DNA of 52,946 nt, taken from positions 1-52,946 of the IMG/VR virus record IMGVR_UViG_3300042465_001424; one strand, written 5' to 3'. Positions 5,216 to 51,892 of the stretch are shown piece after piece. Below the pieces are notes generated by a model. That model ran no database searches and was not told the origin of the DNA. It worked only from the letters and a program-made list of their open reading frames with translations. A program made the translations under genes and the position numbers. Each line of letters opens with the position of its first letter. The first letter of the stretch is position 1. Source of the DNA: a virus (Duplodnaviria; Caudoviricetes).

Positions 5216-6760
5216 ATGTCAGATGCAATAGTAAAGAATCTTAGTTTTGGGTTAGAGGCTCAAAATAAAGTTTTTGAAGGCGTTACAAAATTAACAAAAG
5301 CAGTAAGTTCAACCTTAGGTGCTGGCGGTAAATGTGTAATGTTAGAAGATAGTCAAGGTAGACCAATTATTACAAAAGATGGTGTAACGGTAGCGGATAG
5401 TATTATCTTGTTAGATCCAGTAGAAAATATGGGGGCAAGACTTTTAAAAGAGGCGGCTCGCAAAACAGTTAAAGAAGCCGGAGACGGAACTACAACTGCA
5501 ACAGTATTAGCTCACGCAATTTTAGAGGAGGCTTATAAAGTACAATCTAAAACCAACGCTAGAGAGTTAAAGAATGGGATTGAATTAATGACTGAAGCGG
5601 TTATAACCTATCTAGAGTCTATCGCTGTCCCGGTTACAGGAGATATGATTGACAATATTGCGACTATATCCACAAATAATGATCCAGTGCTTGGTAAAAT
5701 TATTGCCGATGCTTTTAGATCCGTTGGGGAAACCGGTATTGTTATGATGGAAACATCATCAAATGCAGAGACAGAAATAGAAGTTATTGAAGGCGTTCAA
5801 TATGATAAAGGTTTAGTTAATTCAAATTTTATAACTAATCCTAGTAAAAGAACATCAGAGCTAGATAATCCTGTAGTTTTAATTATTGAGTCTCCAGTTG
5901 AAGGTATTAGACAAATACAATCAGTATTAGAATATGTAATTAAAACAAACCGTTCTTTATTGATTATTGCAGATATAGAAACAAATGTTTTATCTGCTTT
6001 AGCAATGAACAAAGTTAAAGGTAATATAAAAGTAAATGTAATTAATGCGCCAACTTATGGTGTTAATAAAAAGGATACATTAGCAGATCTTGCTTTATTA
6101 ACTGGTGCAACAATTATAAACGAAGACTTAGGTGACGATATGGATTTAATCCAGCCAGAGCACTTAGGCACTTGCTTAAAAAGTATTACAGACGATTTTG
6201 AAACTATAATTCAGGTTGGTGGAGTTACTGAAGAAATTCAAGTATTAATTGATTCAATTAAAGAACAACTAGAAGGTAAACTTAGTCCTGGTGAAGTTAT
6301 TAGATTAGAAAAAAGATTAGCTAGACTATCTGCAAAGGTAGCTATTGTAAAAGTAGGTGCTAATTCAGATATAGAATTAAAAGAAAAAGCAGATAGAGTT
6401 GAAGATGCAATTTGCGCAACTAAAGCCGCTATTAAGGAGGGGATTGTACCGGGCGGCGGAATTGCTTTGTTAGATGCGTCAAAAAACTTTGGCGTACCAG
6501 ATATAGGTGGAGAGGTTTTGTTAAAAGCCATTCAAGCCCCGTATAAAACAATATTAAACAATGCCGGTATTAGTTACGCAATAGAGCTCAGTGCTGATGG
6601 ACATGGTTTAAATGTTATTACGGGCGAATATGTCAACATGATTGAAGAGGGAATTATTGACCCATTATTGGTTACCAAATCCGCATTAAGAAATGCATCG
6701 TCTGTAGCTGTTACAATATTATCAACTGATTGTGTAATTAATAACTTACGCGTATCATGA
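5216..6760 (+). CDS. groEL: Phage-encoded chaperonin GroEL (Cpn60)
   Basis: ITKDGVTVA, AGDGTTTATVLA, RVEDAICATKAA, GIVPGGG and GIIDP motifs. No GGM tail. Confidence 0.97.
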   Translation: MSDAIVKNLSFGLEAQNKVFEGVTKLTKAVSSTLGAGGKCVMLEDSQGRPIITKDGVTVADSIILLDPVENMGARLLKEAARKTVKEAGDGTTTATVLAHAILEEAYKVQSKTNARELKNGIELMTEAVITYLESIAVPVTGDMIDNIATISTNNDPVLGKIIADAFRSVGETGIVMMETSSNAETEIEVIEGVQYDKGLVNSNFITNPSKRTSELDNPVVLIIESPVEGIRQIQSVLEYVIKTNRSLLIIADIETNVLSALAMNKVKGNIKVNVINAPTYGVNKKDTLADLALLTGATIINEDLGDDMDLIQPEHLGTCLKSITDDFETIIQVGGVTEEIQVLIDSIKEQLEGKLSPGEVIRLEKRLARLSAKVAIVKVGANSDIELKEKADRVEDAICATKAAIKEGIVPGGGIALLDASKNFGVPDIGGEVLLKAIQAPYKTILNNAGISYAIELSADGHGLNVITGEYVNMIEEGIIDPLLVTKSALRNASSVAVTILSTDCVINNLRVS

Positions 6761-20867: not shown

Positions 20868-23800
20868 ATGGCAGAAGTAAAAAATAGTTTTTTATCGTCT
20901 AAAATGAATAAAGATTTAGACGATAGACTTATCCCTAATAGTGAATATAGAGATGCCTTAAATATAGAAGTAGGTAAATCTGAAACAAATAATATTGGGG
21001 TATTACAAAACGTATATGGGAATGTTAAGATTACATCGGAAACTAATCCAGATTTGGAATGTATCGGTACTTTTATGGATAATGAAAATAATCGTATATT
21101 CCAATTCTTAACGGACTATATTGATCAATTCCCTAATAATATTACATACCCTACATCGGGGACAATGAAAATAGTAGTATATGATTTTGACGATACTTCA
21201 GCATATATAACATTAGTAGATGGTTTATTTTTAAATTTTGCTAAAAACAAACAATTTAAAATAACAGGTGTAAATTTAGTTGAAGGATTATTATTTTGGA
21301 CTGATAATAGAAATCAACCTAGAAAAATAAATGTTAATTTAGCAAATCCTAATAATTTAACAATACCAACATATTATACGACTGAAGAACAAATTTCAGT
21401 TGCAAAATATGCTCCGGTAGATCCTATAACATTATATAGAAAAATAACTGCAACAGTAAATGACGCTAGTTTAAATCCTATTATAGTTTTAGAGGGGGAA
21501 ATTGCTATTGTTCCAGGAATGACAATAATATCAGAAAACATAACTGGAGCAGACTATATAATAGTTACAGATGTTACTATTGATACAATAGCGTCTACAA
21601 CTACAATAACATTATACGAAGCACCTACGGCTACTATAATAAATGGAGAAGAGTTAACCTTTTTAATATCAACTATGTCGGACAAATCAGATGTGCCTTC
21701 ATGGCCTGGTGATCCAGCCTTTTTAGAAGATAAATATGTTCGCTTTAGTTATCGTTTTAAATACGATGATAATGAGTATTCATTAATGGCTCCATTTACA
21801 CAAATAGCTTATATACCAAAACAAAAGGGCTATTTTATTGCGGGGGACGAAACCGATGCATATAGAAGTACTATTGTAAATTGGTTTGAAAACAATATAA
21901 ACAATATTGAATTAATAATACCATTTCCAGATAAAATAAACAATATACTTAATAGTTACAAAATACAAGAGATTGACATTTTATATAAAGAATCAGATTC
22001 TACCGCTATTAAAGTTTTTGAAACAATACCTATTTCTGCTATAAATATATCTAGTAATAATTATTATATACAACCATATCAATCTCAAAAACCATATAAA
22101 ACATTACCAGAAGACCAAACGGTAAGAGTATATGATAAAGTACCCGTTAGAGCAAAGGCGCAGGAGTCCGCTGGGAATAGAATAATTTATGGTAATTATT
22201 TTGATAAATATACTTGTTTATCTTCTATAAATTATAATATGTCGGTTCAAACTAAATCTTCCGTAGGAACTAATTTTATAGAATACCCAAATCATACATT
22301 AAAAAAGAATAGAAATTATCAGGTAGGATTTGTATTGGCTGATAAATTTGGAAGACAATCCCCGGTTATATTATCAACTGTGGATTTAACAAGTACAAAT
22401 ATTGGCGGTGGTAATTTTGCTAAAGGTTCTACAGTATATTCAGGCTATGAAGATACACTTTTGTTTACAGATGTACGATCTTGGTTTGGAGATGCCTTAA
22501 TATTATATTTAAACGCCCCGATAGATCAAGCAAGATCTATTCCAAGTGGTACGCCAGGTTTGTATGCAATAGCAACGTCAAATTCTGGTTTTGCAATTAC
22601 AGCGTCAACAATAACCGATACAATATATAAATATACTTTAGATACAACGGCTACATTAAATACGCCCCCAGCCAATGGTAATATAATGAGGGGCTTTTAT
22701 ACAGATTACGTTAAAGTTTTATCAAATCCAATACCTACAGTAAACCCTAATGAGTACACAATAACTACAAGTGGTAGAGTTGGTGATATATATAAATATG
22801 TGTCTCAAGCAGGAGGCATAAAAGATATTAAATTTGTTTACGAATACAATCCTATTGGTTGGTATTCATATAAAATAGTTGTAAAGCAACAAGAGCAAGA
22901 TTACTATAATGTATATTTGCCCGGTATGTTAAACGGGTATCCTAAAAGCCAAACCTCAGGGTCTCAAGTCGTATATTCAGGCAGTGGAGTTACTGCAACT
23001 TCAACATTAGAAAACGGTATAAATACCACGCAATTTCCAGTAAGTGAAACTGGTAATACATCTCATATTGTATTGATTAATGACAATATTAATAAAGTGC
23101 CTAGAGACTTATCTGAAGTTGGGCCGGATCAAAAACAATATAGAAGTAGCGTTCAATTATATGGGCGTGTTGAAAACGCAGAAGCAAATATTGAAATAAT
23201 AGGATTACCGCCTGCTTATTCAGCAAAAGTAAGAACTATAGAATATAGTACCACAACCGTTGGACAAGGGGATTTTTCATTAATAAAGCCAGGTGATGGT
23301 ATTCAATGTGTTGAGGCTAATACGCCCGCTCCTAATACAGTTTCCGGAACTACTACGGGTGGTACAATGCCTAACCTTTATAGATGGCTAGGTGATACAG
23401 TGGTAGTGTCTAATGTAATTGTAGGAACTATAGGAACTATAACAATATCTTCACCTAACTGGGTATTGCAAGCAGCACAAAATCCAATTCCATCCCCTCA
23501 GCCGGGGAGTGGTGATTATAGAACTTTTATAATTACTAGAGCAGAAAATAGACAATATTTTCCTACTAGGAAAGCAGATACTGTAATATCTATTGCGTCT
23601 GCGGATGAATTTAATTTTTTAGACAGTTCTGAAGATAATTTAAGCGGAACAGCAGGTTTAAATTTTTATCAATTACAAACGAAACCTCTAATAGGTAGAG
23701 TTTCCACCGTTAATAAAATAGGAGTAATTGCTGCTGATATGATACCGTTTTTAGGAGTATATGAAACAAGACCAGAACAGAGTTTATTAGAATTATTTTG

Positions 23801-26087
23801 GGAAACTGCTACAACAGGATTAATATCTGATTTAAACGCAGATGTACTAACTGGTTTTGATGGCCCTTCTAGTTTTGGAGAGTTTGTATATCGTCATTAT
23901 GAAGATCAAAATCCTTTAGGGACAGATTTAGACCCCGCTAATTACGGGGATCCTAATTCAAAATATATAACAAGTGAATTCTACGTATTAGATCAAACCG
24001 GATTTCCTTTGCCGAACACATCTGTTACTATATTATCTGTAAAAGATAACTCTGGGCCTCCTGGTTTAGACAGGTCTGCTGAGTTTGGTCTTGAAACAAT
24101 TATTGGACCGGTTAATAAATTTAAATTAAAAATTCTTTCTAGATTTGTATTTAATAACAATGCAGCTACCGCTGAAAGTTATACTTTTGTGTTTAATGTA
24201 ATAGACTTAGATGACCCTTCTACGGCGACCAAATTAACTATTAACGGCAGACTACGGAATATTGCGCCTGAGATAACAACTACAGAGACGCTTTATAATA
24301 TAACCCAAGATACAACAAGCATTGTAACTTTAGATGCTGTAAACGGAGCGTATTTTGACCCGTTAGGCCCGCCGCCTATTCCTCCAACAGGCGTAAAAAC
24401 AGGATTGTGGTGGACTATAGTTGGGGGTGATACACCTATACCGTCTTTTTATATAGATCCTATTTCAGGTGAATTAGAATTAAGAAACCCTAGCGTATCG
24501 CTTGGTATATATAATTTAGTTATAAAAGTACAGGACGCGGTTAATACTGGCACAGGCGCAATATTGCCGGTTGAAGGAACAGACTTTGGTACAAAATTCA
24601 ATATAAAAACATTTACAATAAATGTTGGAGACGATCCGGTTCCATTTTGGTTAAGACCTAATTACGCAAGTAATATTGTAACAAACCCAATACCTTGTAG
24701 TGGTCCGACTATAGCTCCTCCTGTTTATGGTATGGCTTATATAGGGCCTAATGCTGAAGTAAACTCCGATTATATGCCTGAAATTCCTTTTTCTGGTAAA
24801 ATATATCAATTTGTTGATAATATAGAGGTTAAAAACGCAACTGCTTCTAGCGAGCCATCAGCAATACCTTTAGGATTAAAGAAAGGTGAATATAGATTTA
24901 GCATAGAGTTACAAGTAGGAGCCCCTAGTATTTGCGGTGGATTAGGGTTTGCCACAATTAAAGCAGAAGGTGAAATATATTTATATAAAAGGATATACAC
25001 GCTTGATGGAACAAATCCATGGGTTTTAAGTGCTAATGAAAATAACTATGGAATAACACCCCCTATATATAGAATAGGACCCTTAGTTGTGTCCACTATA
25101 GATGATGGTAGTGGTGGAATAATTTTTGGTCAACCACAAACATTAACAACTTCTTTTACAGTAGAAGCAGACGAATCTATCTTCCCAGCCATTTATGAAT
25201 ATGCAGTAGGGGTTAAATTAATGCAGGAGCGCTCAAATGCTGATCTGGCAAACCCATGGCTTAGAATATATGGCAACGATGCGAATTACAGTTACAACCA
25301 AACATTGCCGTTTACTCCACCAAGACCGCCAATAACAACCGCCTACCCTTTTTATACTGGTATAGCGGAATACAGTATTAACCCTTTAATTCCAGGTGAA
25401 ACTTCTGCCGTTCCTTATACAACACAAGACGCAATACGTGGTACAGATTTTAATTCGCTTATAAACGACGTTAGTTCTGGTACAATATTGCCTTTAGACG
25501 AATCAGTTAAAATTATTTTAACCACAGCTAATGAACAAATTGTGCCAGGTCTGTTTTACACTTTTACTTCTTCAACTATTTCTACATTTAATGGATATGT
25601 TGCTGGAATAAATATTGATAACAATCCTAATAAAATTGCTTTACAATTATTATTCCCTTATAGTGGAAGCGTGCCTGGTGATTTAGCAGGTGGTAATATT
25701 AAGGTTGAAACAGTGCTTCAAACTGATCCTCCGTCGATAGGTGTATTATATGCAAACACAGTAGAAGGAACAGAGATAAAAAGACTGTATACAGATTCTG
25801 CGTTTACTCAAAAATGGATACCGCCTGTGGCAGATAGATTTTATAATTTCCAAACTATTAAAGATTATAACCCTGGCGATGTTACATTTGGTGGTATGAC
25901 ACCATTAAGATACAGTAAATATCCATATTATTGCGCTAAATTTAATGCGTACGGAGAAGTTATAGATCAAATAGCACCTATGCCAAACGTTCAAACATCT
26001 TGGGAGGGACAAAACCCAGAAAATTCAGGACTAATAGTTCCTGTTGAAAATTATAGTTACAACATGTATTATATATCCACACCGTAA
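20868..26087 (+). CDS. Tail stabilisation/muzzle-like protein (N-terminal part) with accessory domains
   Basis: N-terminal KMNKDLDDRL...YRDALNI and LLFWTDNRNQPRKIN as in crAss-like muzzle proteins. Cadherin-like segment near 24250-24620. Confidence 0.7.
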   Translation: MAEVKNSFLSSKMNKDLDDRLIPNSEYRDALNIEVGKSETNNIGVLQNVYGNVKITSETNPDLECIGTFMDNENNRIFQFLTDYIDQFPNNITYPTSGTMKIVVYDFDDTSAYITLVDGLFLNFAKNKQFKITGVNLVEGLLFWTDNRNQPRKINVNLANPNNLTIPTYYTTEEQISVAKYAPVDPITLYRKITATVNDASLNPIIVLEGEIAIVPGMTIISENITGADYIIVTDVTIDTIASTTTITLYEAPTATIINGEELTFLISTMSDKSDVPSWPGDPAFLEDKYVRFSYRFKYDDNEYSLMAPFTQIAYIPKQKGYFIAGDETDAYRSTIVNWFENNINNIELIIPFPDKINNILNSYKIQEIDILYKESDSTAIKVFETIPISAINISSNNYYIQPYQSQKPYKTLPEDQTVRVYDKVPVRAKAQESAGNRIIYGNYFDKYTCLSSINYNMSVQTKSSVGTNFIEYPNHTLKKNRNYQVGFVLADKFGRQSPVILSTVDLTSTNIGGGNFAKGSTVYSGYEDTLLFTDVRSWFGDALILYLNAPIDQARSIPSGTPGLYAIATSNSGFAITASTITDTIYKYTLDTTATLNTPPANGNIMRGFYTDYVKVLSNPIPTVNPNEYTITTSGRVGDIYKYVSQAGGIKDIKFVYEYNPIGWYSYKIVVKQQEQDYYNVYLPGMLNGYPKSQTSGSQVVYSGSGVTATSTLENGINTTQFPVSETGNTSHIVLINDNINKVPRDLSEVGPDQKQYRSSVQLYGRVENAEANIEIIGLPPAYSAKVRTIEYSTTTVGQGDFSLIKPGDGIQCVEANTPAPNTVSGTTTGGTMPNLYRWLGDTVVVSNVIVGTIGTITISSPNWVLQAAQNPIPSPQPGSGDYRTFIITRAENRQYFPTRKADTVISIASADEFNFLDSSEDNLSGTAGLNFYQLQTKPLIGRVSTVNKIGVIAADMIPFLGVYETRPEQSLLELFWETATTGLISDLNADVLTGFDGPSSFGEFVYRHYEDQNPLGTDLDPANYGDPNSKYITSEFYVLDQTGFPLPNTSVTILSVKDNSGPPGLDRSAEFGLETIIGPVNKFKLKILSRFVFNNNAATAESYTFVFNVIDLDDPSTATKLTINGRLRNIAPEITTTETLYNITQDTTSIVTLDAVNGAYFDPLGPPPIPPTGVKTGLWWTIVGGDTPIPSFYIDPISGELELRNPSVSLGIYNLVIKVQDAVNTGTGAILPVEGTDFGTKFNIKTFTINVGDDPVPFWLRPNYASNIVTNPIPCSGPTIAPPVYGMAYIGPNAEVNSDYMPEIPFSGKIYQFVDNIEVKNATASSEPSAIPLGLKKGEYRFSIELQVGAPSICGGLGFATIKAEGEIYLYKRIYTLDGTNPWVLSANENNYGITPPIYRIGPLVVSTIDDGSGGIIFGQPQTLTTSFTVEADESIFPAIYEYAVGVKLMQERSNADLANPWLRIYGNDANYSYNQTLPFTPPRPPITTAYPFYTGIAEYSINPLIPGETSAVPYTTQDAIRGTDFNSLINDVSSGTILPLDESVKIILTTANEQIVPGLFYTFTSSTISTFNGYVAGINIDNNPNKIALQLLFPYSGSVPGDLAGGNIKVETVLQTDPPSIGVLYANTVEGTEIKRLYTDSAFTQKWIPPVADRFYNFQTIKDYNPGDVTFGGMTPLRYSKYPYYCAKFNAYGEVIDQIAPMPNVQTSWEGQNPENSGLIVPVENYSYNMYYISTP

Positions 26088-26135: not shown

Positions 26136-27686
26136 ATGGCTGCAATATTAGAATTAAAATACTTTAACTCTTTTTGGTTAAAGAAACTCGATACAATAGT
26201 AGAGGTAGAAAATACTAAAGGTATTTTAGACGTTGCGGCTAGTGGTACAACTATAGTCTTGACTGAGGATAATGTAAACATAGGGGTAGGGCAAACTGTT
26301 TCTTGGGTTGTCCCCGCTCCGTTGCCAAATCCATTCCCAACAGTTTATAAAAAAATTAACGATCATGAATTTATATTAAGTGAATCAGTAACAATTGATG
26401 ATGCCACAGAATTATCATTCGGTCCAATACAAGATTTTACATACATACCTGCTGCATATGAACCGGGATTAACAGATTGGTATATAGAAGAAGCTAGAAT
26501 ACGCGGGGGATACAATAATACAAACGTAGATCTTGGTGTTAAAGCTTATATTGTTGAAGATAATATTAATCAGCAGCATAGAAAAAGTTCTTTAATATAT
26601 TCCGGAGTATTTAATTCTAGAACTGGAGTAAACAATACAAATCAATTTTCAGTTGGTGAAGATATAACTAGAAGTGTAGATCCATCTGTTGGATCAATAC
26701 AAAAATTATATGCTGAAGACACAAACTTAATTATATTCCAAGAAGCTAAAGTCAGTAGAGCATTGATTGATAAAGATGCAATTTATTCAGCGGAGGGTCA
26801 AGCGATGACTACTTCCGGCGCAATGGTTATTGGTCAAATTCAACAGTATGCTGGTAATTATGGTATAAGCACTAATCCGGAAAGCTTTGCTGTTTATGGG
26901 TATAGAAAATATTTTGTAGATAAAAACCAAGGTTCTGTATTAAGATTATCCCAAGATGGTATAACTGAAATATCAGCATATGGAATGTTAGATTACTTTA
27001 GAGATAATTTATCATCAATTGGTAGTTCTGGTAGTGTAGTTGGTGGATGGGATATGTATAACAAGCAATATGTTTTATCATTGCAACCGCCTAATACAGT
27101 GGAATATCAAACATTGTCATTTGATGAAGATTGTACAGGTTGGACAAGTAGATTTTCATTTAAACCGGATTTATCAGGAAGTTTAAGAAATAACTTTTAT
27201 ACTTTTAAACAAGGTAATATATGGAAACATTATGCTGATCCAGCTACAACCGGTATAAACTATTGCCAATTTTATGATAATCCAATACCATATGACGCAA
27301 CAGTTACTTTAATATTTAATCCTGAGGTTTCAATGTCTAAAAACTTTAATACATTGAATTACGAAGGATCCTCGGGATGGGCCTTAACAGAGTTGTATTC
27401 AAATTCTGATATAGCCACCCAAATCTTTAAATCATCAAATGCATTGACGTTAGCGGAAATAGAAAATCAATTGTTTACAAACAATTTCAAAAGAAAAGAA
27501 AACAAATATTTTGGTACTATTATAAATATAACCCCTCCAACATATGGTGAAGTTATTTATGGTAATTCAATGAATGGAATAAAAGGGTTTTACTCTACAG
27601 TTAAAATGGTGTTTGTAAATCCTTTAACGCCAACCGCTGCAGAATTATATTCTGTATCATCAAATTATGTAATGTCTTCATATTAA
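26136..27686 (+). CDS. Tail stabilisation/muzzle-like protein (C-terminal beta-propeller part)
   Basis: GSIQKL, YGISTNPESFA, YFVDK...VLRLSQDGITEIS, GWTSRFSF motifs. Confidence 0.65.
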   Translation: MAAILELKYFNSFWLKKLDTIVEVENTKGILDVAASGTTIVLTEDNVNIGVGQTVSWVVPAPLPNPFPTVYKKINDHEFILSESVTIDDATELSFGPIQDFTYIPAAYEPGLTDWYIEEARIRGGYNNTNVDLGVKAYIVEDNINQQHRKSSLIYSGVFNSRTGVNNTNQFSVGEDITRSVDPSVGSIQKLYAEDTNLIIFQEAKVSRALIDKDAIYSAEGQAMTTSGAMVIGQIQQYAGNYGISTNPESFAVYGYRKYFVDKNQGSVLRLSQDGITEISAYGMLDYFRDNLSSIGSSGSVVGGWDMYNKQYVLSLQPPNTVEYQTLSFDEDCTGWTSRFSFKPDLSGSLRNNFYTFKQGNIWKHYADPATTGINYCQFYDNPIPYDATVTLIFNPEVSMSKNFNTLNYEGSSGWALTELYSNSDIATQIFKSSNALTLAEIENQLFTNNFKRKENKYFGTIINITPPTYGEVIYGNSMNGIKGFYSTVKMVFVNPLTPTAAELYSVSSNYVMSSY

Positions 27687-30413: not shown

Positions 30414-33400
30414 ATGCCTATATATACTTATAATGGAGCAATGTTTACGGAAGAAGAAGTAATTAGTAAAGCAGAAGCAAAAGGGCTTGATCTGGAAGCT
30501 TATATTAATAAATTTGGTATAACTAAAGAGGAAGATGAAACCGTTGAGGAGCCGGGAAAGCCAAAACCTGTTGCAAAAAAGGGTGCGCCTGCAACAGCAA
30601 AAGGTACGGCGTCCAAATTGGTAAAACCTTCATCGGAGTTAAAATCTGATATATGGGGAGAAGACAGATCTAAACCTGAATTTTTACAAGAAATACAAAA
30701 AGTATCTCAACCCGATATAAAGTTTCCAAAACCTGTTAGTGTTAAAAAACCAAAACAAGAATTAAAATCTATATCTGAATACCAATCAAAAGTAAAAAAA
30801 GAAGAAGAAAGCGGGTTTTCTAATTTTCTTAAAGAATCATTTGATTCCGGAATTTCTACAATTGTGCAATCTGTTTATAAAGCTCCTGAGTTTTTATATG
30901 ATGCCACTGCTGCATTTATTACAGATCCTATTGCTAATTTAGCAAATGATATTATAGGGGTTGAAAGACAAGATTCTTCTTCGGAAAAAATAATGGAAAC
31001 ATTCGGAATTAAAAACATTCCGGCAGATATTTTACAAAAAAGAATTAAGGAATCAAATAAAATAATACAAGATTATAGTGCTAAAAACGGGGTTGATCCT
31101 TTAACTGCTATAGAGAATGGAAACTATTTAGGAGCAGCAAAACTAGTTGCAGGCGGAACAATTCAATCAGTTCCTATGATGGCGGCAGCTATGTTTAGTG
31201 GTGGAAGTTCAACTGCATTAGCTGGAATATCTGCATCTACAGCAATTTCAAAAGCGGAACAATTAAAAATAGAACAACCTGAAATGGACGTTCAAACTAG
31301 AACTATAAATGCCGCGGCGTCTGGATTGCTGGAAGGATATTTAGGCAATTTATTTACAGGTGCTTCTGGAGCAGTTGTAAAAAGAATATTAACTGATAAA
31401 GGAACTAAAGAAGGGGCAAAAGTTATTTCTAATGGCTTAATGAGTACATTAGAAAAAGCCATTGAAAAAAACCCAATGATTGGTGTACTTGGCGAGGTTG
31501 CTGAAGAAAGTAGTGTTGAATTAGGCAATCAATTAAATGATATAAATTCTGGAATTAGAAAAGAATTAGATTATAGATCAATTACTAATGCCGGTATTAT
31601 TGCAACAGGAATGGCTGGTACAAATACTGTGCCTGTATATGGGGCAAAAGGTTATATGAAAATGGCTGAATATAATCAAGTAAAAGCCATAAACAAAGAA
31701 ATTAATACCTTAACAAATCAATTATCTAATCCTTATATTAATGATTCAGATAAAAAAATAATTTCATCGCGAGTTAATAGACTTGTTGATGAGAATAAAA
31801 CTATTGTAGGAACTAGTCTGGAAAAAATTAAAGCATTACCTGAAAATATAAAAACAGAAATAAATACTATTAATGCAGATTTAGATGATATTAAAAGTAA
31901 ATATTTAGACTTAGCAGACAATGACGCCATACCGTTGGATGTTAAAGCAGCAATGGGTGAAGAATTAAAACTTCAAGGTAAACAATTATATGATAGAAAA
32001 AATAGTATCATTGAAGGTAATTATATATATGAAGACTTTAATAAATTACCAACTGAAGAACAAATTAGAATTAAAGATGTAGCAACTCAAAACTTAGTAG
32101 CAGATTCTGAATTAACTGGTAAACCAAAAACTAGTTTTGCCGATGAAGAAATAAATAAAGAAGCCGTAACTATATATAATAATGAAGTAAAAGCAAAAGA
32201 TTTTGTTTCTGATGTAGAAAAAACAAAAGTTGCTATACAAGCTATTGGTCTTGGTGAAGATGTAGAAATGCCTGAATTAAATTCTGCTAATGATGTTATT
32301 AATTATCTATCAACTAATACTACATTAGACAAGAATACTATAGAAGACGTTGCAGATTCTTATGGTGCATTTATTCCTTTGCCAAATGGTAAAGAAGTAT
32401 TAATTATAAATAAAGAAGCTGCTAACATGGATCAGGTGGTTACAACCGGTCAACATGAATTTTTACATAAACTTATATACAAGGCGGTAAAAGATAATAC
32501 AGATTTACAAAAACAAATAGGGTCTCAATTATATAATCACATTGAGAACTATATTGGTACAGAAGAATTTAATAATACTGAATTTAAAAGTAGATACGAT
32601 GCTTATAAGAATGATTTTGAAAATACTAAATTAGAATTAGATAGTAAAGTAACTAAAGCTAAAGACTTTTTTAATAAAGGACTTATAACTCAAGAAAGAT
32701 ACGACCAAGCCGTAACAGACGCGGATAATGCAACCGCTAAAGCTGAAGGTAAATATCTAGAAGAAACATTGCCATTATTGTCTGAATCATTATCAAAAGG
32801 AGACATAAAATATAATGAAACATTCTTTACTAAAATAGGTGATATATTACGTAGAGTATTCCAAAAATATGGACTAAGCAAAGTAAAGTTTAATACGGGT
32901 AAAGATGTGTTTGATTTTGTTAGAGACTATAATAAAAGTTTTGAAAAAGGTCAATTTACTAAAGCGTTTAAGGCGTTAGCGAAAGAAGGCGTTTATAAAG
33001 GATCTATAGCAAAAGGTAACATTCCAGCAAAGCCAACCGCCAAACCAGAAGTTAAATTATCTAAAATACAAATTGATAAACTTAAACAAGATTTAGTTGA
33101 TTTAGAAGATGAATACGACGAAGGCTACGGAGATATTGATGAGGAAGAATATAAGAATAGAAAAGCCAATATAGAAGGTAAACTTAAAACGGCCGTTAAA
33201 TTAGAAGAAAAAGGTGTTCCTGTTAAGGAAGTGAAAAAAGAAGTAACTGAAGAAGATGAGGTTAAAGAAATAATAAAAAATGCTCGTGGTTCAATATCTT
33301 CAGATAAAGTACAACAAATATATGAATCTAAAGGCGTAAATGGTTCAGCAGAAATAATAAGACTATTTGAGCCTATAACTAAAAAGATTGTTGACAAGCG

Positions 33401-36400
33401 TAGAGATGCTCCGGGTTTTGATAGAGAATTATTAACTGACGAGATAAATACAGGAGTTGGTGGAATTTTAGATTTAATAACTAAATATAAACCTGAATCT
33501 GGTATACCATTAGCTGCTTATATAAATAAGTATTTGCCAGTTAGAGCAATTGCTACTTCAAAAAGAATATTAGATCAACAATTTAATAAGGACGCATCGG
33601 AAGAAAAGGGGCTAATAGCAACTGAGACAGCTGATCAAAACTTTATTGAAACAACAAAAGAAAAACCAAAGTATAAGAATGCATTAGAGTCAAAAGTTTT
33701 TGAACCGGAAGTCTTAAAAACTATAAACGATAAGATATTAACAGTAGTTAGAACTTTAAAATCTAAAATTGATGAGCCTATTTCATTGAATAAAACTATT
33801 ACCCCATTAATTGCTGAAATTAGAGACGAAATTGGTAAGCAAGTTGATATTGATGTTAAAACCGCAATGGGCGGCAAAAAAGACAATCAATTAAAAAATT
33901 GGATGTTAAAGAACAAAAAATATGTTCTTGAAAATATGACTACTACTTGGTTAATGGGTAAAGATGGTCAAGGAGGAATGCCGATTGCGGTTCAAAAACA
34001 AATTGACGGAAGATGGGTTAATTTTCCTGAATGGGCTGGTAAAAAAATTGATAGAGAAAAAACAACTACAGATCAAGCTGGTAGAACTTCTGGCGCTGAA
34101 TTAACTAGAAGATTGCCAAGTGTTAATAATAATATATCTGATGCTGATTACTTAGAACAAGTAATAGGGACTGATGGTAATCCTTTACGTGGCAGAAAAG
34201 AATCATTAGCAAAAGCAATAGCTGAAGAATCGACATTTGATATTATTAATGATGATTTGCAAAATGATGGGCCTATTTCAGAAGCTTTAATAAAGAATCA
34301 GGAAAGACTTGGGGTTCAATTAACAAACAATATTACTAATGAATTTGCAAAGCAAACAGAAAGAGGTAACATTAAATTCTCTAAATCTTTAATAAAAGGA
34401 ATATCTATATCTCAAGATAAGTTAGGCAAAGATATATTCAACGCTAAAACAATTGAAGATGAAGCAAAGGTAATAAGTAAATGGATTGCCAGCGATGGTA
34501 GATCATTAAGAACTTTTGCAGCCATGATTGGTAAACAATTAAGCAAATTAAAAACTAATAAAGGGTTATTTGAAAATATAATATTACCAACAATAAAAAC
34601 TTATTCAAAGTTTGAAGGGTTAGTTGGTAAAGACTCTTATAGATTAGGAGAGGTTTCAAGAGGTATATCTATATTCTTTGGGGAAGAAAAAGTGCCTTTA
34701 TGGAAAGACATTGATGAGATAAAAAATAATTGGGGAAGAAGCGCTCCTATAATGGAGAAGGAAGCAATAAGCGCAAATGATCAATTGTTTGATATAATTA
34801 ATTACTTTAAAAATAACAATTATTCCAATGAAGATTTTGAAGGGTATTTACAATTTTTACGAAAAGATCAAAGAGGCTTAATACGAAAACTTTCAAAACC
34901 GGGTATTGCTGTTATAGGTTTAAATAAAAAACAAAAGCCATACTTAGAGCATAATATGCCGGTACAAAATATTGTTGAAAAAATTCTTGATTTTTATGAC
35001 AATAAAATTACAGAAGATCAATTAAGAGAATTTATTGATAAAGGAAAAGTAAACCTTATTCCAGATGAATTAAATAAACTTTTACCAAATTATGAAGTTG
35101 ATAAAAACAGAATGGAAGACCCAACTGTTTTATTATATTTACAAAATTTATTAGATAAAGGTTTATCTATTTATAATATAAAAGCGGAATATGGATCTAA
35201 AGCTAACTTCAATGCGTTAGTTAAAATTGCTCAATCAAAAGTAAATTCAAAAGAAAATTTACAAAATATATATAATACTATTGCAATAGAAAATTCTTTA
35301 GATGTTAAAAAATCTATTAACCCAAAAGGTATTTCGGTATTTGATTTCGATGACACCGTTGGCATGACTAAAAGTAACGTGTTATACGCGATGCCAGATG
35401 GCACTTTTGGTAAATTAAATGCGGAAGAATTTGCAAAAGAAGGTTCTAATATGCTACAAGAAGGAGCTATATTTGATTTCTCTGAATTTAGCAAAGTTGT
35501 TAATGGCAAACCAGGTCCAATGGTTGAAAAGATGAAGAAGATGATTGGCAAGTTTGGTCCTGAAAACTTCTTTATACTCACGGCTCGCCCTGCTAATGCC
35601 GCGGGTCCAATACATGAGTTTTTATCTTCTATTGGTATTGATATACCTTTAGAAAATATAACTGGCTTAGGAAGCAGTTTAGCGCAATCAAAAGCAGATT
35701 GGATGACAGCGAAAGCAGCAGAAGGATATAATGATTTTTACTTTTCCGACGATGCAATCCAGAATGTTGATGCTGTTAGAAATGCTTTAAACGTTCTTGA
35801 CGTTAAATCAAAAATACAGCAAGCTAAAATTAAATTTAGTAAAACTATATCGCCTGAATTCAATAAGATTATTGAGGAGAATAAAGGTATGGAGCACTAT
35901 AAAGTGTTCTCGGATATTGTTGCAAGAAGAAGAGGTAAGTCTAAAAACAAGTTTGATTTTTATGTTCCACCATCTGCTGCTGATTTTGAATTATTATTGT
36001 ATAACTTCTTAGGTAAAGGTGAACGTGGAGAAGAACATCAAAAATTCTTTAACGAAGCATTACTTAAACCGTATGCAAATGGTAATGATTTGATGGATGC
36101 GGCAAGACAATCTATTAAGAAAGATTATAAAGCATTGTTAGATTCATTCCCAGACATACGTAAGAAAATGGAAACATTAACTCCAGACGGAGATTATACT
36201 TACGATCAAGCAATACGTATTGCAATGTGGAACGAAGAAGGCGTTGAAATACCTGGTATATCCGAAAGAGATTCAAGAAAATTAACAGATTTGGTAAACA
36301 ATGATCCTGAGCTAGCTGCGTTCAAACAAGGCTTAATAGTTACTGGCAGACAAGGTAAAGGATGGATTAACCCTACTGAATACTGGGACGCAAATACTAT

Positions 36401-38075
36401 CATTGCGGATCTACATGGTTTAACAGAAGGTGAAGGACGTAAGAAATTCCTTGCTGAGTTTATTGACAATGCTGAACAAATGTTTGGAACATGGTCTCAA
36501 GGAAAATTGGTTGGCCCTAACATTAACAAAGTAGAAGCCGTATATGGTTCGAATGTAAGAGAAGCTATTGAAGATGTACTGTACAGAATGACAACTGGTA
36601 AAAACAGAAGCCAAGGCAAGGATAAAGAAACAAGCGCTTGGAGTAATTGGGTGAATGGTTCTACTGGAGCTATTATGTTCTTAAACACTAGATCTGCCGC
36701 ATTGCAATTAATTGGGGCAGTCAATTTCTTAAACTTAAGAGATAATAATCCTTTTAACGCTGGTAAAGCATTTCTAAATCAACCGCAATATTGGAAAGAT
36801 TTCTCACGTATTTGGAATTCAGATAAAATGAAAGAAAGACGCGGTGGATTAAAAGAAGATGTTGCCGCTGCTGAGATTGCAAATGCCGCCGCGGGTAGTA
36901 AAAATAAACCTGCTGCTGTTATAGCTTACTTATTAAAAATCGGTTATACGCCGACGCAATTAGCAGATAGTTTTGCTATTGCCTCTGGGGGTGCTCCATT
37001 TTATAGAAATAGAATTAAATCTTATTTGAAAGAAGGATTAACAGAACAAGAGGCGGAAGATGCGGCTTGGAATGATTTTACAAAAGTATCAGATGAAACA
37101 CAACAATCAGGTGATCCTAGAGATATATCAAAACAACAAGCGAGTGGAGCGGGAAGGTTATTATTAACATTCCAAAACACGGCAATGCAACAATCTAGAA
37201 TTGTTAAAAAATCTTATTTAGATCTAAGAGCTGGTAGAGGTAATGCTAAAACACATATTTCAAAAATAGTATATTATTTGGCAGTACAAAATACATTGTT
37301 TGCTGTGTTGCAACAAGGATTATTTGCGGTTGCCTTTGATGATGATGATGAAGAAAAAGATACAGAAAAAGAAAAAGTCAAAAAGAAAACAACTAATGAA
37401 AGATTAATAGATGTCGCTGACGGTGTGTTGGATACAATATTAAGAGGAACCGGATTTGCTGGAGGAGTTGTTTCTGTATTAAAGAACATGACTAAAAAAT
37501 ACCTCGACGAAAAAGATAAAAACTTTAAAGCAGATTATGCTAAAGTTGTATTAGAAGGGGCTAACATATCACCGCCAATTGGATCTAAACTTAGAAAAGT
37601 ATATACTGGACTTCAACAAACTAAATTTGAAAAAGACCTTATAGACGCAAGAGGTTGGGGTGTTATGCAAGATGGAAGAGTTCATTTAGGGCCAATGTAT
37701 GGAGTGGCTGGAAAACTTGCTGAAGCAACAACTAACTTGCCAATTGATAGGCTTGTAAACAAAATTGAAAATATATCTCAAGCAATGAATTCTGAAAATC
37801 AAGCATGGCAAAGAGTTGCTGTAGGAGTTGGGTTTACACCTTATTCAGTTGGTATAGAAGAATCAAAAGGTGATGTAGAAATTAGAGCAAAAGCAAAAGA
37901 AATACGTAAAGAAGAAGGATTAATAAAAAGCGAAGAAACAAGAGAACGTAAAAAAGATTCTATTAGAGCTTTACCAATTAGGGAACGCATTAGAATAAAA
38001 AGAGAGGATAGACTTAAAAGAAGAGAAAACGAATTTAAACGCAGGGAAAGAAAAGCAAATAGAAAAATGGGTTAA
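30414..38075 (+). CDS. Giant polyvalent internal virion protein (zincin, sigma-70 region-2-like and HAD phosphatase domains)
   Basis: 2553 aa. HEFLH at aa 681, sigma2-like segment at aa ~981-1046, HAD motifs DFDDT (aa 1644), ILTAR, K, FSDD. Last gene of the virion module. Confidence 0.7.
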   Translation: MPIYTYNGAMFTEEEVISKAEAKGLDLEAYINKFGITKEEDETVEEPGKPKPVAKKGAPATAKGTASKLVKPSSELKSDIWGEDRSKPEFLQEIQKVSQPDIKFPKPVSVKKPKQELKSISEYQSKVKKEEESGFSNFLKESFDSGISTIVQSVYKAPEFLYDATAAFITDPIANLANDIIGVERQDSSSEKIMETFGIKNIPADILQKRIKESNKIIQDYSAKNGVDPLTAIENGNYLGAAKLVAGGTIQSVPMMAAAMFSGGSSTALAGISASTAISKAEQLKIEQPEMDVQTRTINAAASGLLEGYLGNLFTGASGAVVKRILTDKGTKEGAKVISNGLMSTLEKAIEKNPMIGVLGEVAEESSVELGNQLNDINSGIRKELDYRSITNAGIIATGMAGTNTVPVYGAKGYMKMAEYNQVKAINKEINTLTNQLSNPYINDSDKKIISSRVNRLVDENKTIVGTSLEKIKALPENIKTEINTINADLDDIKSKYLDLADNDAIPLDVKAAMGEELKLQGKQLYDRKNSIIEGNYIYEDFNKLPTEEQIRIKDVATQNLVADSELTGKPKTSFADEEINKEAVTIYNNEVKAKDFVSDVEKTKVAIQAIGLGEDVEMPELNSANDVINYLSTNTTLDKNTIEDVADSYGAFIPLPNGKEVLIINKEAANMDQVVTTGQHEFLHKLIYKAVKDNTDLQKQIGSQLYNHIENYIGTEEFNNTEFKSRYDAYKNDFENTKLELDSKVTKAKDFFNKGLITQERYDQAVTDADNATAKAEGKYLEETLPLLSESLSKGDIKYNETFFTKIGDILRRVFQKYGLSKVKFNTGKDVFDFVRDYNKSFEKGQFTKAFKALAKEGVYKGSIAKGNIPAKPTAKPEVKLSKIQIDKLKQDLVDLEDEYDEGYGDIDEEEYKNRKANIEGKLKTAVKLEEKGVPVKEVKKEVTEEDEVKEIIKNARGSISSDKVQQIYESKGVNGSAEIIRLFEPITKKIVDKRRDAPGFDRELLTDEINTGVGGILDLITKYKPESGIPLAAYINKYLPVRAIATSKRILDQQFNKDASEEKGLIATETADQNFIETTKEKPKYKNALESKVFEPEVLKTINDKILTVVRTLKSKIDEPISLNKTITPLIAEIRDEIGKQVDIDVKTAMGGKKDNQLKNWMLKNKKYVLENMTTTWLMGKDGQGGMPIAVQKQIDGRWVNFPEWAGKKIDREKTTTDQAGRTSGAELTRRLPSVNNNISDADYLEQVIGTDGNPLRGRKESLAKAIAEESTFDIINDDLQNDGPISEALIKNQERLGVQLTNNITNEFAKQTERGNIKFSKSLIKGISISQDKLGKDIFNAKTIEDEAKVISKWIASDGRSLRTFAAMIGKQLSKLKTNKGLFENIILPTIKTYSKFEGLVGKDSYRLGEVSRGISIFFGEEKVPLWKDIDEIKNNWGRSAPIMEKEAISANDQLFDIINYFKNNNYSNEDFEGYLQFLRKDQRGLIRKLSKPGIAVIGLNKKQKPYLEHNMPVQNIVEKILDFYDNKITEDQLREFIDKGKVNLIPDELNKLLPNYEVDKNRMEDPTVLLYLQNLLDKGLSIYNIKAEYGSKANFNALVKIAQSKVNSKENLQNIYNTIAIENSLDVKKSINPKGISVFDFDDTVGMTKSNVLYAMPDGTFGKLNAEEFAKEGSNMLQEGAIFDFSEFSKVVNGKPGPMVEKMKKMIGKFGPENFFILTARPANAAGPIHEFLSSIGIDIPLENITGLGSSLAQSKADWMTAKAAEGYNDFYFSDDAIQNVDAVRNALNVLDVKSKIQQAKIKFSKTISPEFNKIIEENKGMEHYKVFSDIVARRRGKSKNKFDFYVPPSAADFELLLYNFLGKGERGEEHQKFFNEALLKPYANGNDLMDAARQSIKKDYKALLDSFPDIRKKMETLTPDGDYTYDQAIRIAMWNEEGVEIPGISERDSRKLTDLVNNDPELAAFKQGLIVTGRQGKGWINPTEYWDANTIIADLHGLTEGEGRKKFLAEFIDNAEQMFGTWSQGKLVGPNINKVEAVYGSNVREAIEDVLYRMTTGKNRSQGKDKETSAWSNWVNGSTGAIMFLNTRSAALQLIGAVNFLNLRDNNPFNAGKAFLNQPQYWKDFSRIWNSDKMKERRGGLKEDVAAAEIANAAAGSKNKPAAVIAYLLKIGYTPTQLADSFAIASGGAPFYRNRIKSYLKEGLTEQEAEDAAWNDFTKVSDETQQSGDPRDISKQQASGAGRLLLTFQNTAMQQSRIVKKSYLDLRAGRGNAKTHISKIVYYLAVQNTLFAVLQQGLFAVAFDDDDEEKDTEKEKVKKKTTNERLIDVADGVLDTILRGTGFAGGVVSVLKNMTKKYLDEKDKNFKADYAKVVLEGANISPPIGSKLRKVYTGLQQTKFEKDLIDARGWGVMQDGRVHLGPMYGVAGKLAEATTNLPIDRLVNKIENISQAMNSENQAWQRVAVGVGFTPYSVGIEESKGDVEIRAKAKEIRKEEGLIKSEETRERKKDSIRALPIRERIRIKREDRLKRRENEFKRRERKANRKMG

Positions 38076-44946: not shown

Positions 44947-44980
44947 TATTATCAAATTACAATCGTGTTTAGATTGTAAG
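44947..44980 (-). promoter_or_regulatory. Class A promoter-like repeat, copy 1
   Basis: TTACA-atct-AAACACGAT-tgtaatt-TGATAATA upstream of the primase-helicase. Confidence 0.75.
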
Positions 44981-47728: not shown

Positions 47729-48493
47729 TTATAGGTAATCAAGGACTTGAGAGGGTTCTACGTTGTCAATTAACTTTTTAATTGCTTGTTTTTTTATCTC
47801 TGAAATTCTTACATAAGCGCTTGCCCCTTCGATACCTAATTTATCCGCTATCTCATTTGCCGAATACTTATCACAGTCTAATCCATAACTTAATCTTAAT
47901 ACTTCATACTCACGTTCATTTAAGTGTTTAGTCAATAGACTCTTTAAATATAAATTCATAAGGTTTATATTATAAGGCTCAGTTTGATCCGGAATTTGAT
48001 AAAGCATGTTATCTTCGTCGTCATCATTAATCTGTTCATCGATGCTTAAGAATATGGAATTAAAAAACATTGCAACCATCGTATGGTCTTTGCCATTATC
48101 TTTTCTAATTTCATTTAGTTTATGTTCTGGAATCTTAATTGAGCCTCTATTAATATCAATAGCACGTCTAATTGAGCCTTTAATTCTTTTTGATAGAAAC
48201 GACTTAATAGTTTTTTCTTGATCAGTAGAAGCGTTTAATGTATCCCATTCAATTTTATCAACAGCTAGTATTAACCCCATAGATCCATGTTGCATAAGAT
48301 CCGTAATATCTAGTACTCCGCACGCTTGGGTTGTAGTTGAAAACTTCTTTGCAATATTCTCTACCAAAGGTAAAAACTTAGCAATAAGCCGGTCCCTTGG
48401 GTATGATTGAAAATCATTATTTAAACTATCTTTATTAGTTTGTTTAATATCTTCTTTGTATCTAATGTAATTTGGTATATTGTAACTTTTCAT
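47729..48493 (-). CDS. RNA polymerase sigma-70-family factor
   Basis: Region 2 (LPLVENIAKK...DLMQHGSMGLILAVDK...RIKGSIRRAI) and region 4 (LNEREYEVLRLSYGL...EIADKLG...RISEIKKQAIKKL). Confidence 0.9.
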   Translation of the reverse strand: MKSYNIPNYIRYKEDIKQTNKDSLNNDFQSYPRDRLIAKFLPLVENIAKKFSTTTQACGVLDITDLMQHGSMGLILAVDKIEWDTLNASTDQEKTIKSFLSKRIKGSIRRAIDINRGSIKIPEHKLNEIRKDNGKDHTMVAMFFNSIFLSIDEQINDDDEDNMLYQIPDQTEPYNINLMNLYLKSLLTKHLNEREYEVLRLSYGLDCDKYSANEIADKLGIEGASAYVRISEIKKQAIKKLIDNVEPSQVLDYL

Positions 48494-49614: not shown

Positions 49615-49830
49615 TTATTTTATATTATTATCATTAATTGATCGTGTTTCTATTGTAAGCTTTTTTAGATTAGCTTTTAATTTATTAAACTCTTTTTCTG
49701 TTGAGTTACGTTCATTAAGGCATCGATCACAATATAAATCATTAGTAGGTTTGCCTACAGTAATAATTGTTCTACATAAATGGCAAAGTGTTGCCCCTCT
49801 ACCATTATTAAACTTGTGAATCGGCTTCAT
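49615..49830 (-). CDS. Small zinc-finger protein
   Basis: KFNNGRGATLCHLC...CDRC. Confidence 0.6.
   Translation of the reverse strand: MKPIHKFNNGRGATLCHLCRTIITVGKPTNDLYCDRCLNERNSTEKEFNKLKANLKKLTIETRSINDNNIK
49626..49659 (-). promoter_or_regulatory. Class A promoter-like repeat, copy 2
   Basis: TTACA-atag-AAACACGAT-caattaa-TGATAATA in the 3' end of the zinc-finger ORF, upstream of the operon leading to sigma. Confidence 0.75.
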
Positions 49831-51859: not shown

Positions 51860-51892
51860 TATTATCAATCTTTGATCGTGTTTAGACTGTAA
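51860..51892 (-). promoter_or_regulatory. Class A promoter-like repeat, copy 3
   Basis: TTACA-gtct-AAACACGAT-caaagat-TGATAATA. Confidence 0.75.

Follow-up and report, generated by a model that had tools for sequence, protein, structure and literature searches.

Phages take control of transcription by injecting a polymerase (N4, crAss-like phages, phiKZ), by injecting a modifier of the host polymerase (T4 Alt) or by using a host sigma factor. The T7-like virion RNA polymerase of N4 and the ADP-ribosyltransferase Alt of T4 are both carried in the particle and act on transcription at the start of infection, and neither of them is sigma-like. In this study we describe a giant protein of 2553 amino acids (aa) that is encoded by a Caudoviricetes virus (IMG/VR record IMGVR_UViG_3300042465_001424; the whole stretch of 52,946 nucleotides (nt) that was analysed is called the window) and that is likely to contain a very diverged domain resembling region 2 of sigma70-family factors (sigma2). 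Our literature search, made mostly on titles and abstracts, brought up no report of a sigma-like domain within a phage protein that is packaged.

A giant protein that enters the cell with the phage DNA has been described for the crAss-like Flavobacteriia phage phi14:2. In this phage, gp66 is a packaged RNA polymerase of 2180 aa that enters with the DNA and starts early transcription, and the catalytic signature of crAss-like virion polymerases, DFDxD, takes the form DFDID in gp66 (bioRxiv 10.1101/2020.03.07.982082). The protein of the window is like gp66 in being a giant protein and in having a gene with a crAss-type muzzle C-domain nearby; it is unlike gp66 in that its open reading frame (ORF) is without DFDxD and has no tblastn similarity to any cultured phage. 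A sequence-only reading of the window that preceded this analysis had seen no catalytic motif of an RNA polymerase in the giant ORF, and our motif scan agrees, finding neither DxDxD nor DFDxD there; the same scan found neither motif in the 1739-aa ORF upstream. No RNA polymerase family of Pfam matched the giant protein itself, and PF00623 matched neither the window nor any of three relatives that are at least 94% complete. PF00940 was likewise unmatched in these genomes, a weak negative because the control matched no control genome, which also makes it uninformative for the comparison with N4 and its T7-like polymerase. With no catalytic motif and no PF00623 or PF00940 match, a crAss-type or T7-type polymerase was rejected as a candidate; with no RNA polymerase motif or family found, the phage should therefore depend on the host polymerase.

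For a sigma factor reduced to region 2 the described counterpart is T4 gp55. This protein is a very diverged member of the sigma70 family that has only the part homologous to region 2 and can nevertheless direct transcription. It binds the beta' clamp helices of the polymerase with three acidic residues (E70, D74, E77) set at an i, i+4, i+7 spacing, recognises a -10-like element, and also has a helix-loop-helix and a clamp-binding tail (PMC7892883). Two activities of sigma2 are known, namely binding of the core at the beta' clamp helices and binding of the -10 single strand (PMC7892883).

Fold and profile evidence for a sigma2-like domain

The 66 residues in which the sequence-only reading had seen a likeness to sigma region 2 are the exact translation of 33354-33551 on the + strand, that is aa 981-1046 of the 2553-aa ORF. 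The domain recognised here (about aa 946-1055) is broader than that segment. The layout of the giant ORF, taken from the ORF list and its translation, is as follows.

30414..38075, + strand: giant ORF, 2553 aa, final gene of the particle-gene block on the + strand
33249..33578, + strand: predicted sigma2-like helical domain, aa 946-1055, counterpart of sigma regions 1.2-2.4 (AlphaFold2, Foldseek, hhalign)
33354..33551, + strand: segment of the sequence-only reading, aa 981-1046, counterpart of sigma regions 2.1-2.4
33579..33647, + strand: linker of variable length, aa 1056-1078, with a predicted local distance difference test score (pLDDT) <50 at fragment residues 126-164 and an indel in the alignment
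33648..34373, + strand: conserved second domain, aa 1079-1320, beginning with the invariant KEKPKYKN at nt 33657-33680

The likeness was assessed by fold and by sequence profile. An AlphaFold2 model of aa 930-1330 (model 1), built from a 36-sequence alignment, was compared by Foldseek with PDB and BFVD. In this model the sigma2-like part is a helical block, recognised over aa 949-1054 with pLDDT 74-84, made up of helices at aa 946-957, 963-984, 986-994, 1004-1013, 1018-1024 and 1033-1055. Ranks 1 to 27 of the PDB matches are all sigma factors or holoenzyme entries that contain one, as are about 44 of the 50 matches listed, where we take the matched chain to be the sigma subunit from chain names and lengths. 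Structures of sigma2 alone fit best locally, namely the N-terminal domain of SigE (8b3z_C; probability 0.97, template modelling score 0.66, root-mean-square deviation 2.8, 74 columns) and domain 2 of SigA (4x8k_A; probability 0.72). In BFVD the named top matches are phage sigma factors with probabilities of 0.80-0.97. In contrast, the neighbouring second domain, which is the better modelled of the two, gives an unrelated mix of PDB matches with probabilities of no more than 0.06. The domain thus resembles sigma2 of bacterial sigma70-family factors of the extracytoplasmic function type and of group 1 (best fold matches to SigE, SigA, sigma32, sigmaS and the SigA holoenzyme), and the HH alignment covers regions 2.1-2.4 in register. 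It is unlike these bacterial factors in that it fails Pfam Sigma70_r2 at each threshold used, is without region 4 and is embedded in a giant protein. Among the Foldseek matches listed for PDB and BFVD there was no direct match to gp55.

Profile comparison places the likeness in the same register. The family members fall into eight sequence clusters over the region before KEKPKYKN (164, 25, 25, 16, 2, 2, 1 and 1 members), and the window belongs to cluster c0. The register that the sequence-only reading had set by eye against sigma region 2 was recovered by hhalign against 30 Bacteroidota sigma ORFs (score 17.2, P 0.032), with none of 100 column shuffles reaching that score (maximum 16.0), and it returned with a second c0 alignment (P 0.035) and with the family of the phage's own sigma factor (P 0.061); the same likeness did not extend to Pfam and PDB sequence searches, in which no sigma appeared. 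A stronger signal comes from the sister cluster c1, which matches sigma with a score of 31.8 (E 2.4e-4, probability 44%), while its shuffles give a mean of 10.5, a standard deviation (sd) of 1.7 and a maximum of 15.7, and the reversed alignment gives 11.5; the match thus lies about 12 sd above the shuffles. Along the c1 proteins two windows over the sigma2-like region score 27.9 and 28.7 (probability 53-59%, E down to 1e-4), an overlapping neighbour scores 20, and the remaining 50 of 53 score 16.5 or less. Clusters c0 and c1 are in turn homologous to each other at this region, in the same register over 112 columns (probability 90%, E 1.7e-6), and the merged profile of both (89 sequences) matches sigma with E 3.7e-4. 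As for the smaller clusters, c2 aligns to sigma in register over its upstream part (P 0.015), and c3 aligns out of register, to region 4 (P 0.25).

Conserved residues allow a comparison with gp55. L1033, I1037, L1041, R1044 and A1045 are invariant in the 36 aligned relatives, and position 1036 is aromatic in every one of them (Y in 19, F in 11, W in 6). The predicted helix aa 1004-1013 carries acidic residues at E1005 (30/36), D1009 (31/36) and position 1012 (E in 31/36; N in the window). In most relatives, E1005, D1009 and E1012 therefore form a stripe with the i, i+4, i+7 spacing of E70, D74 and E77 in gp55, a likeness drawn by eye (PMC7892883). Like gp55, the domain is without sigma3 and sigma4. 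The two differ in that gp55 is small and free-standing, is made during infection and has gp33 and the sliding clamp as partners, whereas the domain lies within a 2553-aa protein of the particle block; the giant protein does not have the gp55 format of a small free-standing protein.

Because the fold ranking and the transitive link from c0 through c1 to sigma are taken together, we consider it quite likely that aa ~946-1055 form a real, very diverged sigma2-like domain.

The conserved core and the giant-protein family

The sigma2-like domain, the linker and aa 1079-1320 together make up the core that is conserved best in a large protein family; its members are 1400-3300 aa long and come from uncultured podophages that are relatives of Flavobacteriia phages. 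Within this core conservation is highest in aa 1079-1320, where 12 residues are invariant across 65 sequences and invariant basic and polar residues are numerous. A second AlphaFold2 model, of this domain (pLDDT 88.1, predicted template modelling score (pTM) 0.84), had no PDB fold match in Foldseek (no probability above 0.06). The domain was considered as a sigma3 or sigma4 and rejected, with an HH probability of 0.4% and no sigma fold match; at most, then, the module of the giant protein would be sigma2-only. Nine relatives had seemed to be 'sigma2-only' proteins, but what follows the sigma2-like domain in them is the second domain again, in a diverged form (HH probability 80.5%). Region 4 was hinted at in the nine relatives whose second domain is diverged (P0244, P0253, P0254, P0256, P0258, P0259, P0418, P0440 and P0443; HH score 25.3, P 0.0094, shuffle maximum 16.3). 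In the main family the corresponding value is within the shuffle range (P 0.075), and in the AlphaFold2 model a single helix runs unbroken through aa 1131-1152, the place at which a helix-turn-helix would have its turn. On balance we lean against a region 4 in the nine diverged relatives. A small hidden Markov model (HMM) of sigma4 run against the family gave noise.

Searching with aa 900-1400 gave 1067 family proteins among 8000 scored candidates, and the best 120 of these 1067 are 1421-3293 aa long with identities of 60-94%; an exhaustive search with aa 930-1330 gave 459 cluster representatives. Over 258 homologues conservation is concentrated in two blocks, aa ~650-1330 (with a peak at 1050-1300) and ~1800-2500, and the N-terminus and aa 1350-1800 are variable. 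In all 37 IMG/VR loci compared, the sigma2-like region is placed 876-1358 aa from the start of the ORF. Short members of the family are mostly located on short contigs. P0400, a 923-aa relative on a 38-kb contig, begins at the second conserved domain, is without the sigma2-like part and carries precomputed Pfam labels for Zeta_toxin/AAA_33.

No homologue of the giant protein was found in 50,697 cultured-phage records (tblastn, megablast) or, in a scan with the family profile, in one genome each of 185,579 species. The nearest relative by portal, MW202828, has a giant protein that is dissimilar to that of the window. Searched as whole protein, as sub-fragments and through relatives, the family had no Pfam or PHROG annotation, only sub-threshold matches resembling chance.

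Giant multi-domain 'polyvalent' proteins of phages were reportedly described by Iyer et al. 2017, and we know of no sigma-like domain in them, nor did our literature search turn one up. The family studied here is like the polyvalent proteins in having conserved blocks amid variable regions and an HExxH motif, and one relative is labelled Zeta_toxin/AAA_33; it is unlike them in that Pfam detected none of their defining domains in the giant protein. The HExxH motif lies upstream of the sigma2-like domain.

32454..32468, + strand: HEFLH (HExxH) motif, aa 681-685, from the motif scan

This motif is zincin-like, and a 78-sequence alignment of the family shows almost no variation at its H, E and H; a Pfam search of the region gave no match. 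It might be possible that it serves in processing of the giant protein. Two further features were noted in the variable region. DFDDT at 35343-35357 (aa 1644-1648) resembles motif I of haloacid dehalogenase (HAD) phosphatases, and an HAD phosphatase was rejected since there is the motif alone and no Pfam HAD match. At 35010-35123 (aa 1533-1570) Pfam gave a Sigma70_r1_1 match (E 0.0031, 17.9 bits) that is under the cut-off of 22.5 and probably due to chance.

Gene order and the phage's own sigma factor

The window is the whole viral record, with a CheckV completeness of 82% and a G+C content of 33%. According to Pfam and PHROGs, the + strand carries genes for a tail fibre, GroEL, the large terminase, the portal and several virion structural proteins, and the minus strand carries those for ribonucleotide reductase, MazG, thymidylate synthase, a primase-helicase, an exonuclease, Erf and a sigma factor. 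Near the end of the + strand block the order is a 1739-aa ORF, a 516-aa ORF, a short tail-fibre-like protein, two unknown ORFs and then the giant ORF.

20868-26087, + strand: 1739-aa ORF with a match to phrog_14478
26136..27686, + strand: muzzle-like particle protein, 516 aa (Pfam crAss_MUZ_C 3.1e-6, 28 bits, cut-off 27; phrog_14478, virion structural protein, 1.2e-47)
47729..48493, minus strand: free-standing sigma factor, 254 aa (Pfam Sigma70_r4 1e-5, Sigma70_r2 2.9e-4; PHROG_351 1.1e-23)

The two ORFs match different ends of phrog_14478, the 1739-aa one the N-terminal part and the 516-aa one the C-terminal part, and they look like a single long structural protein divided in two.

This arrangement is conserved. 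Homologues of the muzzle-like protein, of ORF249 and of the 1739-aa protein lie on the same strand, upstream of the giant gene, in 36 of the 37 IMG/VR loci, and the giant gene ends the particle block in these relatives also; the reductase lies downstream on the opposite strand in 23 of the 37. From this gene order, with the giant gene at the end of a particle block that is conserved and co-oriented (36/37 loci), we conclude that its product is probably carried in the particle and ejected along with the DNA. That the protein is instead left out of the particle, being made late and acting in the infected cell (for instance in assembly, or as a sigma-like regulator that is tethered), is considered as the last of the alternatives below.

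The phage also has a sigma factor of its own. What the sequence-only reading had called by that name corresponds to the 254-aa ORF on the minus strand, which is a sigma factor by Pfam region 4, Pfam region 2 and PHROG, and which hhalign matches to the 30 Bacteroidota sigma ORFs with a probability of 90% (E 1.6e-6). It was present in all five related viral records checked. Every one of the 8000 candidates scored as its relatives passed the threshold; the best 120 share a length of 254 aa and are at least 81% identical. Among cultured phages there was no close relative, only two records, both of Synechococcus phage S-CBS1, with 35% identity over 39% of the query. Judged from these sequences, its distribution appears to mark an abundant group of uncultured phages.

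Relatives of the portal were found in phages of Flavobacterium (68 records), Cellulophaga (15), Tenacibaculum (2) and Maribacter (1) and in one unclassified phage, all at less than 60% identity. The GroEL gene of the window (5216-6760; phrog_5725, 5.7e-129) has a relative with 73% identity on a 117-kb contig of a Flavobacteriaceae metagenome-assembled genome, a sequence match that hints at the host group. A 33-nt motif was noted in three copies 5' of minus-strand genes (44947-44979, 49626-49658 and 51860-51892; chance expectation 0), one of which precedes the operon containing the phage sigma gene. The motif may serve as a promoter or as an operator; it was not found in the other loci compared, and no tie to the sigma2-like finding could be made.

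Alternative explanations and a possible role

Several results weigh against a sigma domain at work in the giant protein, or against the likeness itself. The first group bears on function. Pfam region 4, Foldseek and HH comparison found no sigma3 or sigma4 after the sigma2-like domain, the acidic helix resembling region 2.2 varies across the eight sequence clusters, and an injected sigma factor is not required because the phage already has an ordinary one. These points, together with a neighbouring domain whose invariant basic and polar residues make it far better conserved than the sigma2-like part, favour a fold that is genuine but repurposed. Such a fold might hold the leading end of the DNA or single-stranded DNA, or be a structural or packing element, and would make no contact with RNA polymerase. 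The two activities known for sigma2, however, are core binding and binding of the -10 single strand (PMC7892883), and the aromatic residue at position 1036 in all 36 relatives and the acidic stripe in 30-31 of them fit, by eye, a retained surface of the sigma type. A repurposed fold is, in our view, somewhat unlikely, and it is the alternative that fares best.

The second group of results bears on the likeness. It is quite unlikely that chance or convergence explains it, with a generic helical bundle over-read by AlphaFold2 and Foldseek, but the scores are low enough for this to be weighed. All Foldseek E-values in PDB and BFVD lie between 0.03 and 1.4, none at or below 0.001, with sigma factors ranked first in both libraries. 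Model 1 as a whole has pLDDT 63.7 and pTM 0.43. The HH probability against sigma is just 1.6% for the own subfamily and 37-59% for the sister or merged profiles. The own-subfamily profile (30 sequences) scores 15.5 (P 0.037) at aa 991-1120, which is third of 54 windows along the protein, and the best window is aa 1306-1435 with 16.4. No sigma family of Pfam matched the whole giant protein (E <=10) or aa 880-1320 (E <=1), and no Sigma70 family matched the 36 aligned relatives, a six-frame scan of the window or six proteins of the sister subfamily (E <=10). Searches of PDB sequences with the family profile and two fragments returned no sigma, and a small home-built sigma2 HMM had its best match at the expected place in 20 of 169 proteins with all scores negative, which is noise. 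Against chance stand the first rank of sigma factors in two independent structure libraries, where the neighbouring domain gives a random mix; the sister-cluster match, about 12 sd over shuffles, unique among 53 windows and at the homologous position; and the identical register against bacterial and phage sigma factors.

The remaining alternative, that the giant protein is unpackaged, is improbable: it has no cultured relative among the 50,697 records and no PHROGs match, but its gene ends a conserved, co-oriented particle block after muzzle-like and tail-fibre-like genes, and its size and position parallel those of the packaged giant proteins of crAss-like phages (bioRxiv 10.1101/2020.03.07.982082).

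We return to a diverged sigma2 in a conserved core that is packaged, ejected and docks on the host polymerase, an explanation that we hold tentatively as a whole and place somewhat short of an even chance. Its parts differ in strength, and the contact with the polymerase is the doubtful one. That the giant protein engages an RNA polymerase core appears rather doubtful, and it is unlikely on present evidence that the ejected sigma2-like module engages the host core on the phage DNA as it comes in, whether by recruiting the polymerase or by acting as a minimal sigma. A possible hypothesis as to how it could act is the following. The giant protein would be ejected into the cell together with the phage DNA, and its sigma2-like domain would dock on the beta' clamp helices of the host core, as sigma region 2 and T4 gp55 do. 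Docking would keep a single polymerase, or a few, at the genome as it enters; there the module might either start transcription as a sigma2-only factor or recruit the polymerase, possibly aided by the adjacent domain, and the free-standing sigma would then serve later genes. Few copies of a packaged protein would arrive in the cell, so a stoichiometric block of all host polymerase is unlikely and local action more plausible; local action on the entering genome in turn favours docking of the host core to the incoming DNA. The partner domain aa 1079-1320 may supply DNA binding or an enzymatic step.

A defined fragment of 390 aa would suit a direct test of polymerase binding. Even if the function turned out to be another one, the proteins of this family would still be of interest for joining a sigma2-like fold with a neighbour that is strongly conserved and without a fold match in PDB. 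The family has more than 1000 members, and the free-standing sigma factor has at least 8000 relatives. If the proposed role were true, the giant protein would bring a sigma-type factor into the cell within the virion, the first known case, and it would represent a further strategy for taking over transcription at the first moment of infection. As such it would explain how abundant uncultured podophages of the Flavobacteriia type, which are without a polymerase of their own, start their program.

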